Part shown: positions 23,173 to 30,918 of the stretch, piece after piece
Layout: the number at the start of each line of letters is the position of its first letter
How positions within the stretch are numbered: the first letter of the stretch is position 1
IMG/VR virus record: IMGVR_UViG_3300045988_130630
Reading direction: 5' to 3' (one strand)
Origin: a virus
DNA length: 64,000 nt
Notes under the pieces: generated by a model
Told to the model about the DNA's origin: nothing
Databases searched by the model: none
Seen by the model: only the letters and a program-made list of their open reading frames with translations
Made by a program: the position numbers and the translations under genes

Positions 23173-26100
23173 ATGTCTAAGATACGTTTTCGTCCTGTAT
23201 AGGGTCCAGAAGAAAAAATAAAAGAATATCCTCAAAGCGATGGATATTTTTATGTGGCAACAGATACAGGCCGAGTTTATTTAGATACGGCAACTGAAAA
23301 TAAAATGCCAATAGGGTCTAGTGGGGTTCAGGTAATTTACGGTACAGATAATACTGTGGAAATTGAATATGATGCGGATGAAAACCCAGTGGCTTATTTA
23401 ATTCTTTTATCAAAATTATCTATAACAAATTGTCATATAGATGATTTAATTTTAAATTTAGACGGATGTTTTTATCGAATTTTAGGTTTTGCTTTAAATG
23501 AAAACCGCGAAGAATGTGCGAGATGTGAAAAATTAACTGTCGCTGGGGCAGGCGGTGGCGGAGAAGGAGACTCTGAACAAAAAGTTTTAGGAACTGTTTC
23601 TTTAACAAGAATTCCATCTGACAGCCCTGTTGATATCTTAAATGAAGAAAATGTTAAAGTAAAAGTTTTGGTTAAATGTAGAACTGTTGGTGGCGTTCCG
23701 CAATCTTCTTCTGTGCAAGGAATTATAACTATAAGCGAAATTAAAAGTGCTACAGAAAAAGAAATTTATTATACTTCTCCTCCTACTACTTATGAGCATA
23801 ATATTCCGCAAGAAATTAATTTAACTAATATTTTAAGAAATTCATGTTCTAGTGAAATTAATTTTAGTATTTATTATAATCCTGATAAAGAAAATAATAG
23901 ATTTTAGAAAAGCTCTGATACTATTAATATCAATAAACACCATCTTTCTTTTAGTTGGAAAGAAAGTAGTTTTAGTAATGATAGTCCAGTTGACAATGGA
24001 CAAATATCTGTTAGTTGGTTAATGTCTGAAGATATCGCCAGATCTGTTGAAGTTTATTTTGATGATTATTTAGTTTTAGATAGAACTTATAGTGATACTG
24101 ATTCTTCTTCTGAAGATTCTTTTGTTATTACTCCTGATACAAATATATTAGGGACTGATAAAGTTTCTACTTTAAAAAATTATTTTACTCATGGTGAGCA
24201 TATAATAAAAGCAAAGTTATATTTAATGAATAATTCTAAAAAAGGTGCAGGAACAGATTTTATTCAGAAAGAAATCGTTATTCAAGAACCAGGTAATAAA
24301 ATGCCTTTAATTTGGGTACAAGATTTTAAAACAGAATATTATACTTATGAGACAATAAGAATTCCTTTTAAAGTATTAGATCCAAATAATAATGGAGCTT
24401 TTATAACTCTTTATAAAAATGGTGTTCAAGTAGGAACTAGAGAATTAGATAGTTCGCAAGTTAGAGAATGGCAATATTGGGAAATTACTAATTTAACTGT
24501 AGATGATAGTTCTTATTATACTATTAAAGTTGGTACTGATCCTTATTCTTATTCTCGTAATTTTAATTTTACAATTTTAATTGACCCTTTAAGAGATATG
24601 AAGTTAGTAAAAAAAGATAATTTAAAGGTTAATTTTATAGCTACTGGTCGTTCTAATTCAGAAGGAAAATTAGGCCGTGAAACTTATTTAATTAATAATA
24701 ATAAATATGTAGAATTTAAAAATTTTAATTGGTATAATAATGGTTGGGTTTTTGATGAAAATAATACGACTTGTTTACGAGTAAGTAATGGTGCTGAAGT
24801 ATCTATTCCAGTCGGAAAAATGGCTTTTAAAGATGAATCATCATCTGCTACTATTGAGATTCAATTTAAAATAAAGAATCCTCAAAATTATGCTAAAGTT
24901 ATAACTAAATATACTAGATATAAAGTAAGTAAAGATAATTGGGAAGATAATGATGCTTGGGATAAATTTAAAGCCCAAAATAAATATCTTAATTATGATG
25001 AGTTTTTAACTAAAGAATATTTACCGACAACTAATTATACTTATGATGATTTAGAATATAATAAAATAGAACAAGATTTTAATTTAAAGAATTTAGTTTG
25101 TGCATATGGTAAATTAGGGAATTCTGTCTCTCCTGGTATTTATTTTAGTCCATAGGATGCTGTATTTACAGCTAACGGGGCTCAAGAAACAGTTTCAGTT
25201 GATTTTATTGAAAATGAAATGCTAAATCTTTCATTTGTTTATACTAAAAAGAAAAGTGATATAGAAGGCGGAAATTCTAAATTATTAGAAATTTTTATGA
25301 ATGGCGTTTTAACTAGTGTTGTACGTTGTAGTAGTGATGTTTGGAATATTGATTCTGATTTCATTAAATTTATGTCTAATACTTGTGATATTGATATTTA
25401 TAGTATTAGAGTTTATGATACAGATTTAACTATTCCTGAAATAGTCCAAAATTACGCTTTTGATAAGAGAAGTATAAAACAGTGGGACCAAAAAGATCTT
25501 TATGAAAATAATACGGTATTAAAAGATGATGTATTCTCTTATACTAAAATGAAAAAGTATAATGATAATCATCCGACTGAACCTTTAATGCCCTATATTA
25601 TTTTAAGGACTACTAAAAATAATAAAAATAATACGGATAATAGATTACCTTATTCTAAAGCAAAAGGAAGCTAGGAAGGAACTTTAGAATTTGTTAACAC
25701 TGCTTTAGACGCTGCTTACAATAGTGGTGAATTAGAAAAAGTTGCTATAAAAGAAGGATGGAAACCTGTAATCGAAAAAAATGAAGAAACATAGGAAGAA
25801 GTAGTAAAATATACTGCGGTATAGAATTATTATATGCATCATTGTCCTAGTTTTATAACTGTTCTTAATGGATGTACTTTCCAAGTTCAAGGTACTTCTT
25901 CACAATTTTATCCTCGTCGTAATTATAAAGCTAAATGCAAAGAATCAATGCTTTTAAATAGAGGTCCATTTGCTGAAGACTATAAAAAAGCAGGAGACTA
26001 GTATAATGAAGATATAACTAAACATCCTTGTTATTTAGAGTGGTTTTATATGGATAATAAGACAGTCGGTACTACTAAATTTACTTTAAAAATAGATTTT

Positions 26101-29100: not shown

Positions 29101-30918
29101 AATTTAAATAATATTTAGTGGAGCCCGTATAGACTTCTTACTGATACTAAAACAACTCTTGATCCAGAAAGAAAATCTTATTATAGAGATAATGGACATT
29201 TTTAGTTAATTGCTATTCCAAAAGATTAGGTTAATAAAATAACAAAATCTGATATTAAAAATAATTAGATTTATTATTTAGATACAATAAATGGAGATAA
29301 TGATAACCATAGCGTAATAATTGATTACAATTTATTAATTGATGTTTATAATAATTATAGAGGTCTTAATACGAATAAACCTGAAATATCTGGCGTTGTG
29401 TATATAAAAAATAATAATTAGATTGATGAATCTATTATTTAGAGTGAGTTATAGAATAAATATCCTGATTTAATAATTTTTGTAGAAAATGTTAAGCAAG
29501 AATGTTCTGCTAAGTTTATTTTAGAAAAAGAAGATATTGATGGAGTATTAATTTAGGAAGTTTTAAAAATTTAGAAATTATCCTCATCCAGCGATAAATT
29601 CTTTGATGATCCAACAAATTCTTCTAGCGAAACTTATATTTCTTTTGGTAGCTTACAAGAAAAAATGCCAACTTATGATTTTAAAGGTTGGGAAGACGAT
29701 ACAGGAGAATTAGTAATTACTGTTGGAAAAAATGTAAATGAAGAAGATGTTGTTTTAAAAAATACTTGGAATTCTTTGTCTTTACAACCTGATAAAATAG
29801 ATTATATTTTCAAAGCAAGATTTGAACGTAAATCTTACACAATTACTTTCGTTAATGGCGACCGCGTTATTAATGATTCAACTGTAAAGAAAGTATTTAA
29901 TTATGGTGAAAGAATTACTGTTCCAGAAGAATTCTATTATTTTAATAATACAGAAGTATCTGATTTACCAGAAGGCGAAGATCCATTAGAATGGACTTGG
30001 AGATAGACGGGATGGGCAGATAAAGATGGAGTTAAAATTGATTTAACTAAACAATTAGCTTATGCCGACCGTGAATTCTACGCTATTGGAGAACCAATTA
30101 GCGTTTATAATAATATTTTAATTAATGATTCTACTCATAAATATTATGATATTATAAATTCTGATGGAGAGTTATCATTTGCAATGACTGACTTAGCTAA
30201 AAATTTAAAAGGCAAAATTACTTTGCCTACAACTTATAATGGTTAGCCAATTACAAGAATTAAATATAGCCAAGTTAACCCATCAGCAGCAGTTGGTATT
30301 CAAGTAAATCCTAATATTACTGCAATATTTTTTGCTCCAAAAGATAGCAATAAAATTTCTGTAATAGATGATTATGCTTTTATTTTAGATAGTGGGCTAG
30401 AATATTTCCAATTTAGTGATTGTTTAAAGAAAATTGGTACTAAAGCATTTTATCAATGTCCTTTAAGTCGTAATAACATAATTCCTTATTCTTCTTCTAC
30501 TGAAGGTTTGACTTTTGGAGCTCAAGCATTTTATCAAAGTAAGATGGGTTCTTATTCTCCTTATAATTTAATTATAGAGGGATGCAAAGATGGTATTCTT
30601 AATTTTGATATAAATGCATTTTCTGGTCAGACAATTTTAAATATGTCTGGTAATTAGTTTAAAGGTTATACCGGCGCTATCCAAGTATAGATTGGTACTA
30701 ATAAACATCCAATTAAGCAAATTACAGCAGATAACTCTGGTAATATTTTTACTCCTCGTCAAACTGGTATGCCTACTGTTGCTAATGGATACACAGGTCG
30801 TTTTAGATATTATTATGTGGCTAGTTATGGTGAAAGTATTAAAAATACTTTACATAATATTTATGAAGCAATGATATCCAATAGAGCGAATTTTGAAGAA
30901 GAGCCTATTGTAAAGTGA
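23173..30918 (+). CDS. giant tail-associated structural protein (about 2581 aa) with C-terminal BspA-type leucine-rich repeats
   Basis: ATG 23173 behind AAGGAG. A single frame links track ORFs 23254-23907, 24022-25155, 25219-25674, 26050-26460, 27436-28209, 28213-28947 and 29665-30006. The 26461-27435 gap was checked codon by codon and contains only TAG. The C-terminus has repeats of the IG..AF..C..L..I type. TGA stop at 30916-30918. Confidence 0.6.

Follow-up and report, generated by a model that had tools for sequence, protein, structure and literature searches.

We describe a giant gene in a 64-kb viral sequence (64,000 nucleotides of a ~193-kb genome, IMG/VR record IMGVR_UViG_3300045988_130630, with a G+C content of 29.8%), referred to below as the window, i.e., the whole stretch of DNA that was analyzed. 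The gene occupies positions 23173 to 30918 of the plus strand, and its product of 2,581 amino acids (aa) combines a lectin-like jelly roll, a CotH-type atypical kinase fold, and leucine-rich repeats (LRRs). We consider it likely that this protein is a distal tail component of the virion, in which the LRR tip, probably together with the lectin-like domain, would recognize the host surface and the CotH domain would retain a nucleotide-dependent chemistry. A first-pass annotation, made from the sequence without database searches, had described a giant tail-associated protein ending in LRRs; that description was incomplete, having missed both the jelly roll and the complete CotH kinase fold.

A single giant reading frame

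Frame +0 of the giant gene holds 26 TAG codons, no TAA, and a single TGA, which is the terminal codon, and the ATG at 23173 is preceded by an AGGAG Shine-Dalgarno sequence 8 nucleotides upstream. Read with the standard code, the gene would be cut into 27 pieces, the longest of 415 aa, but with TAG read as glutamine, it is one frame whose 2,581 codons would be expected to lack both TAA and TGA with a probability of only ~1e-73, as computed from base composition. The database contains full-length homologues of 2,400 to 2,800 aa, with identities ranging from 98% down to ~22%, and the contigs that carry them reach ~196 kb. All five orthologues whose DNA was compared have kept the frame intact (26 to 40 TAG codons each, TAA absent, and TGA only as the terminal codon), and the TAG positions drift among them: a TAG occurs in 84 alignment columns, only two of which have it in all five sequences, and the codon most commonly found opposite TAG is CAA (Gln), with Glu and Lys codons coming next. 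In two distant homologues, P0031 (2,683 codons; 33% identity over 94% of the query) and P0079 (1,898 codons), the frame is free of stop codons of any type, which makes the case for a single giant polypeptide independent of the read-through assumption.

It is extremely improbable that the gene is an artifact in which separate genes, or the parts of a decayed pseudogene, are joined by an assumed read-through of TAG. Such an artifact would account for the 26 in-frame TAG codons and for the finding that no tRNA, including suppressor tRNA, was detected in the 64-kb window or in 13 related loci. It is at odds, however, with the improbably long absence of TAA and TGA, with intact orthologues in which drifting TAG codons align to CAA, with the two stop-free homologues, and with predicted domains that, where confident, continue across the TAG positions, which are distributed along the whole protein. 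No internal tandem repeats were found within the gene. Taken together, these comparisons indicate that the single giant polypeptide is genuine, as the first-pass annotation had proposed, and neither of the internal stops that by its account would have refuted the single frame (TAA or TGA) is present within the frame in the window or in the orthologues.

TAG recoding of the late genes

Treating TAG as a sense codon raises the summed stop-to-stop length of open reading frames (ORFs) in the window from 44 to 67 kb, the longest then having 2,776 codons. The density of TAG per 1,000 codons is 15.7 in the plus-strand structural (late) block versus 4.1 in the minus-strand (early) block, which encodes NrdD, Pol III alpha, SF1 and DnaB helicases, RecJ, and dUTPase. 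We tested the reading of TAG as glutamine on the tape measure protein (TMP), encoded on the plus strand at 975-9278 and containing 83 in-frame TAG codons. The homologues employed for this comparison (0 to 2 TAG codons) are from relatives that are not recoded, and the test is hence not circular. Glutamine stands opposite the 83 TAG positions in 26.2% of cases, compared with a background of 6.8%, and on this comparative evidence TAG is read as glutamine in the late genes.

Relatives in IMG/VR have genomes of ~190 to 197 kb, and they differ in their use of TAG. TMPs of the more distant ones (L031-L044, L047-L052, and L057, whose tail chaperones are 36 to 49% identical) measure 2,844 to 3,263 aa as complete ORFs and contain 0 to 2 TAG codons, whereas those of closer relatives contain 56 to 94 in frame; judging from these counts, the genetic code varies within this group of phages. 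No release factor was found in the 64-kb window, and a suppressor tRNA, if there is any, sits elsewhere in the genome.

Both the giant protein and the TMP are, as had been noted before, visible only with TAG read-through (26 and 83 codons, respectively), and they offer an example for annotation pipelines, in that a 7.7-kb giant gene and an 8.3-kb TMP gene dissolve into fragments under the standard code. A comparable discrepancy exists between two records of one phage (L002 and L003, with JGI versus ENA gene calls), for which the locus is fragmented in one source and contains long ORFs in the other. The discrepancy arises from neighboring genes with 3 to 8 in-frame TAG codons (the giant gene there has none), and in this case recoding hides genes in public annotation.

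Domain architecture and an exchangeable tip

The domains presented here are drawn from family conservation, from profile matches, and from two structure models built on segments of P0001, an orthologue that is 98% identical to the window protein. The protein opens with a domain recognizable by its conservation in the family (aa 1 to 123; 23173-23541), after which comes the Gly-rich linker AGAGGGGEG. Its motif, GxxYFxxDTxxxYxD, recurs in the 342-aa product of the plus-strand ORF at 33608-34636, and the N-terminal hidden Markov model (HMM) of the family matches this ORF (33602-34636) at an E value of 3e-7, as would fit two proteins docking at one site. The N-terminal domain is probably the attachment to the tail or baseplate, and the 342-aa protein is a candidate second fiber docking at the same site. 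Two other ORFs that by eye seemed to share the motif (20761-21378 and 21387-23054) yielded HMM E values of ~3 and are unsupported as sharers.

A predicted lectin-like jelly roll of the Laminin_G_3/concanavalin-A-like type (~aa 475 to 790; 24595-25542) is situated between the N-terminal domain and the CotH-type fold, and together with the CotH core, it holds nearly all of the residues that are invariant in the family. The CotH domain is followed by a central LRR module with approximate boundaries (aa ~1766 to 1990; 28468-29142), seen as periodic short strands in the second structure model and supported by LRR_8 and LRR_4 matches in family members, as well as by LRR matches of P0094 in an apparently equivalent region. 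Next come two beta domains resembling Listeria-Bacteroides repeats (Flg_new; aa ~2151 to 2320; 29623-30132), with the motifs YDFKGW and RQTGW. P0074 has a Flg_new match (E = 1.3e-8) whose position corresponds to aa 2223 to 2298 of the window protein, which itself has no Pfam match to Flg_new at an E value of ≤1.

The C terminus consists of BspA/TpLRR-type LRRs (aa ~2321 to 2510) and a cap (aa 2511 to 2581), together spanning 30133-30915. The predicted fold is that of the TpLRR/BspA type, and LRR_5 is above threshold in 15 of the 19 family members sampled (best E value, 1.6e-56), mapping to aa 2365 to 2501. The closest structural matches of this tip are cell-surface LRR_5 proteins of gut bacteria, and the PHROG matches of the giant protein as a whole are to two families of unknown function. 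The BspA-type repeats named in the first-pass annotation are thus borne out by the family profile and the predicted fold, despite a sub-threshold Pfam score, but they are not the unusual module that it took them for, being usual inside this family. Of the domain annotation that it recommended, LRR and carbohydrate-binding-type (jelly roll) folds were recovered, with the Pfam result for the window protein itself remaining below threshold.

The tip has a history different from that of the rest of the protein. P0011 shares ~90% identity with the window protein through the core, falling to 43% and 23% in the last two modules; conversely, P0013 and P0016 are 55 to 78% identical in the core and 88 to 97% identical over the last ~430 aa. 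From these per-domain identities, we conclude that the distal ~430 aa are exchanged between lineages. A conserved proximal part joined to a mosaic, exchangeable distal part is the pattern by which tail fibers are recognized, and swapping of the tip is as expected for a determinant of specificity. The region from aa ~2151 to 2581 (the Flg_new domains, the BspA-type LRRs, and the cap) is therefore a probable receptor-binding module.

Position in the tail module and distribution of the family

In four phage contexts, the gene lies within the tail module, 3' of the TMP gene and of baseplate or distal-tail genes. In the window, it is downstream of the TMP gene and several large tail genes. In a P2-like prophage on a contig of a Clostridiales metagenome-assembled genome (L004), the order is TMP, gpX, gpD, gpU, Baseplate_J, Tail_P2_I, a 383-aa gene, and the homologue, followed by a reverse transcriptase (RT) and a holin/GH25 lysin. 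In siphovirus NatCom_3357, it is TMP, Dit, an 800-aa protein, two small ORFs, the homologue, one ORF, and a holin/endolysin. In Hankyphage, the TMP, baseplate hub, and minor tail protein precede a 6.7-kb target gene of a diversity-generating retroelement (DGR), which contains the homologous region and is matched by aa 1392 to 1665 of the window protein.

We consider it very unlikely that the giant protein is instead a late, non-virion protein, secreted or displayed at the surface, that modifies the host envelope (e.g., for superinfection exclusion or as an aid to release). Envelope modification has been proposed for a different family of phage kinases (Benler et al., PMC8008677), and the resemblance of the tip to surface proteins of gut bacteria could be taken in the same sense. 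Yet the tail-module position is conserved in four unrelated types of phage, the N-terminal motif is common to another tail-module protein, and the N terminus, as judged by eye, shows neither an evident signal peptide nor a membrane anchor.

The CotH-like core alone retrieves 904 cluster representatives at an E value of ≤1e-3 (155 at ≤1e-30), mostly of 2,000 to 2,900 aa; giant CotH-domain tail proteins are thus widespread in gut phages, and the family is large and essentially unannotated. Like the variable proteins of certain DGRs, the window protein exceeds 2,000 aa and possesses carbohydrate-binding, CotH, and LRR modules. The 64-kb window contains no direct repeat resembling a template repeat/variable repeat (TR/VR) pair and no RT among its scanned ORFs, and Pfam detects no C-type-lectin variable domain in the window protein; the set of variable repeat, template repeat, and nearby RT that marks a DGR is thus missing from the window. 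In the P2-like prophage (GCA_021201475.1, JAJQEV010000007.1; positions 10001-17774), P0079, a homologue in the standard code, contains DUF6273 (PF19789), and an RVT_1 reverse transcriptase comes after it; the two probably constitute a DGR of the CotH category. In relative L007, a separate 732-aa DUF6273 protein is encoded downstream of the giant gene (25233-27431).

The CotH-type kinase fold

The predicted structure of the P0001 segments has the three-dimensional fold of a CotH atypical kinase, corresponding to aa ~896 to 1674 of the window protein (25858-28194) and split by a variable, beta-rich insert (aa ~1111 to 1395). Across 23 diverse family members, the invariant columns are concentrated in two blocks, both within the CotH domain: the first comprises Q906-G-T-S-S, Y913, N917, and K973 (K973-x-D), and the second comprises D1430-SRG-K1434-N1435, W1459, Y1464-D1465-I-D1467-T, G1471, and N1474. 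Four distant members (P0085, P0087, P0092, and P0094) exceed the Pfam threshold for CotH (PF08757), with 31.8 to 47.3 bits versus 23.8. Their matches map to aa 905 to 1516 of the window protein, that of P0094 covers profile positions 3 to 257, and the CotH motifs align unambiguously and continuously from the window protein to all four.

The motif pair D-x3-K-N ... [YFW]-D-x-D-[TS] is present in 91 of 94 homologues. In CotH of Bacillus subtilis, mutation of D228 and D251 abolishes activity (PMC7821199), and the spacing between these two residues equals the 22 to 23 residues of the D1430-to-D1465-type spacing seen only in distant members. The set of kinase-like motifs (Gly/Ser-rich loop, Lys, D-x3-K-N, and D-x-D) is kept across nearly the whole family, and on this basis, the CotH domain probably still binds nucleotide.

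Several points weigh against a virion tail protein with a nucleotide-dependent CotH domain. Membership in the virion is deduced from gene position and homology, and the two structure models represent P0001, not the window protein itself. The sole Pfam result for the window protein is the sub-threshold LRR_5 match (PF13306; aa 2393 to 2454; 19.9 versus 27.7 bits); there is no Pfam CotH match even at an E value of ≤1, and the gathering score of PF08757 is not reached. No sequence-level match to a solved CotH was obtained with the whole-family profile, P0085, P0094, or a focused profile from which the insert had been removed. We infer from the form of the motifs and their 22- to 23-residue spacing that D1430 and D1465 would correspond to the B. 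subtilis residues D228 and D251. Finally, a kinase on an extracellular fiber has no obvious supply of ATP.

Some of these points would be explained if the protein were the same tail fiber but its CotH domain were a pseudo-enzyme, a rigid scaffold or binding module that performs no phosphotransfer and leaves host recognition to the lectin and the LRRs only. ATP is scarce in the extracellular setting of a fiber, the Pfam profile is blind to the window protein, solved CotH structures go unmatched by sequence, and a variable insert of 285 residues interrupts the fold; moreover, fungal CotH invasins act as adhesins. What this alternative accommodates poorly is that the residues remaining invariant at ~20% identity form a catalytic-like pattern (QGTSS, K, D-x3-K-N, and D-x-D-T-x-x-G-x-N-N) and are not general surface or core positions, as pseudo-enzymes usually lose such residues. 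A pseudo-enzyme is a real but minority possibility. The most specific version of the proposed role, an active CotH-type kinase that would act at the cell surface during adsorption and, in the course of engaging the receptor, phosphorylate either a host envelope component or the fiber itself, we put forward tentatively, as a somewhat doubtful extension of the motif conservation.

The supply of ATP would cease to be a problem if the giant protein were carried by the virion and entered the host along with the DNA, and its CotH kinase then phosphorylated host proteins in the manner of the T7 kinase, albeit pre-made. The kinase motifs are conserved, and large ejected proteins are known in other phages. 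We nevertheless regard an ejected effector as unlikely: the architecture is that of an adhesin (a lectin, two LRRs, and Listeria-Bacteroides repeats), the tip is swapped between lineages, and the C terminus of relatives is a DGR-diversified ligand-binding domain. Furthermore, the gene occupies the fiber slot, after baseplate genes in the P2-like relative or after TMP/Dit and hub/minor-tail genes in the siphovirus-like relatives.

Tape measure protein and neighboring genes

The 2,767-aa product of ORF 975-9278 matches phrog_4211 at an E value of 7e-65, and nine of its ten further PHROG matches are also to TMP families (ten TMP PHROGs in total); these matches, together with a position between the tail chaperone and the distal-tail genes, identify it as the TMP, the assignment that it had already received. 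The giant gene had been described as adjoining the TMP gene. The two do belong to the same tail module, but they are 14 kb apart, with the TMP gene upstream and six genes between them. These six (9438-23054, plus strand) encode large tail, baseplate, or fiber proteins of 1,090, 959, 768, 758, ~205, and ~555 aa, with weak PHROG tail matches to phrog_21056 (minor tail) and phrog_1887 (tail protein), and their order is the same in the orthologue loci examined.

A tail length of ~400 nm would follow from rule-of-thumb arithmetic only (2,767 × 0.15 nm = 415 nm); the estimate gains some support from the TMPs of relatives, all of which are 2,745 to 3,330 aa long. In L009, a relative with 99% identity, a gene for a 327-aa virion protein and then two smaller ORFs precede the TMP gene. 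No sheath-like PHROG match occurs in the 10 kb on that side of the gene, where most proteins are without known function, which suggests a siphovirus-like tail layout.

Some smaller features accompany these genes. A plus-strand frame of 162 codons with 10 TAG codons (8863-9348) overlaps the 3' end of the TMP gene in a different frame. The gene after the TMP has a provisional start, its first ATG (9438) having no obvious Shine-Dalgarno sequence (9375-9438), and a frameshift product may be made in this region. Downstream of the giant gene, two adjoining plus-strand genes (31195-32901 and 32914-33534) have paralogous N termini, with a 74-nucleotide stretch that is 77% identical; both products carry the motif AE(T/I)IYF(Q/E)IDRYFD, neither has a PHROG match, and they may be fiber accessory proteins or chaperones.

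Other features of the window

A minus-strand gene at the boundary of the late and early modules (35126-35941) encodes a regulator with a response-regulator receiver domain and a LytTR DNA-binding domain just under the Pfam threshold (AgrA-like). It is conserved in relatives and could point to a Firmicutes host or to regulation of the quorum type; SpoIID and PG_binding_1 lysins encoded by a relative likewise hint at Firmicutes. The 293-aa product of a nearby plus-strand gene (36790-37701) combines a hydrophobic segment (WWIIILFLFCF) with stretches rich in Gly/Asn and a tail rich in Cys/Gly (CGYGSGCGCNS); it has no Pfam match, and relatives keep the 293-aa gene. GC skew changes from ~+0.2 to ~-0.2 at ~34 to 40 kb, where the plus-strand late block gives way to the minus-strand replication block, and cumulative GC skew has its maximum near 38 to 40 kb. 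Inside the replication block and outside the tail module, a TAG-free minus-strand gene (51709-52569) encodes a 287-aa protein with a match to Phage_lysozyme2 ("phage tail lysozyme"; E = 1.6e-18).

Discussion

We propose that a gut phage of ~190 to 197 kb, translating TAG as glutamine late, would make one 2,581-residue tail fiber or receptor-binding protein in which an N-terminal docking domain is followed by a beta-rich region, the jelly roll, the CotH domain with its insert, the central LRR, two Flg_new domains, and the terminal LRR. The conserved N-terminal domain would dock to the tail tip, the lectin domain would probably add carbohydrate binding, and the last ~430 residues would serve as an exchangeable tip for host recognition. 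The CotH domain would bind nucleotide, most likely for phosphotransfer onto a component of the host envelope or onto the virion itself.

One member of the family to which this protein belongs is the diversified receptor-binding protein of the Bacteroides phage Hankyphage, which is common worldwide. At the window locus, the chassis of lectin, CotH, and LRR would work without a DGR, specificity being altered by swaps of the BspA-LRR tip. Kinase-like motifs are the most conserved residues family-wide, and the job of a kinase fold on a tail fiber is thus a testable question. If the domain were an active surface kinase, it would represent a new enzymatic class among the activities with which phages engage their receptors, alongside depolymerases, esterases, and lysins, and hundreds of gut-phage lineages would have conserved it, whether the tip is a DGR-diversified lectin or an LRR.

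Among known systems, a close counterpart of the central domain is the Bacillus CotH spore-coat kinase (PDB accession numbers 5JDA and 5JD9; PF08757), with which the giant protein shares 14% identity and no Pfam or PDB sequence match. Unlike in Bacillus, the fold is split here by an insert of ~285 aa and embedded in a 2,581-aa protein of extracellular type. The C-terminal repeats (aa ~2321 to 2510) resemble TpLRR (6mlx), pneumococcal PcpA (4cp6), and gut-bacterial proteins (4fs7, 4gt6, and 4h09) in fold and repeat motif; those are bacterial surface proteins, whereas the LRR described here belongs to a phage tail protein, as its distal module, and scores below threshold in Pfam.

In genome organization, the phage resembles the TAG-recoded gut phages described by Borges et al. 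(bioRxiv 10.1101/2021.08.26.457843), whose Jade, Sapphire, and Agate clades (~150 to 210 kb) show late-gene recoding. The likeness extends to the size of the relatives' genomes, to TAG codons that are read as glutamine and concentrated in structural genes, to replication genes that are almost free of TAG, and to a code that varies among relatives.

The closest counterparts of the giant protein itself are the target proteins of CotH-type DGRs. Category f1 targets are phage-linked proteins of ~2,000 aa in which CotH and Laminin_G_3 motifs are weak (Wu et al. 2018, PMC5758913). Proteins of domain group 3 of the Bacteroides DGRs exceed 2,000 aa and display carbohydrate-binding motifs and LRRs along with motifs of the CotH active region, 5JDA (Macadangdang et al., bioRxiv 10.1101/2024.11.15.621889). 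The single published remark on the kinase domain of these proteins is that kinase domains of the CotH family, found in phages in fusion with hypervariable C-type lectins, are "currently unstudied" (Benler et al., PMC8008677). As in these systems (the Hankyphage p00 target, f1, and group 3), the giant protein is a phage tail-module protein of >2,000 aa that combines Laminin_G_3-type, CotH, and LRR modules, and the relationship includes direct homology to the Hankyphage target as well as the presence of P0079, with its downstream RT, in the same family. It differs from them in having a BspA/TpLRR-type tip after Flg_new domains, with no RT or TR/VR in the window, and the diversity of this tip comes from module exchange rather than from mutagenic retrohoming. 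The giant gene is, moreover, TAG-recoded and carried by a phage of ~193 kb, unlike that of Hankyphage (~43 kb). The chassis is thus already known, and we read the giant protein as a non-DGR, LRR-tipped variant of the CotH-domain phage tail proteins.

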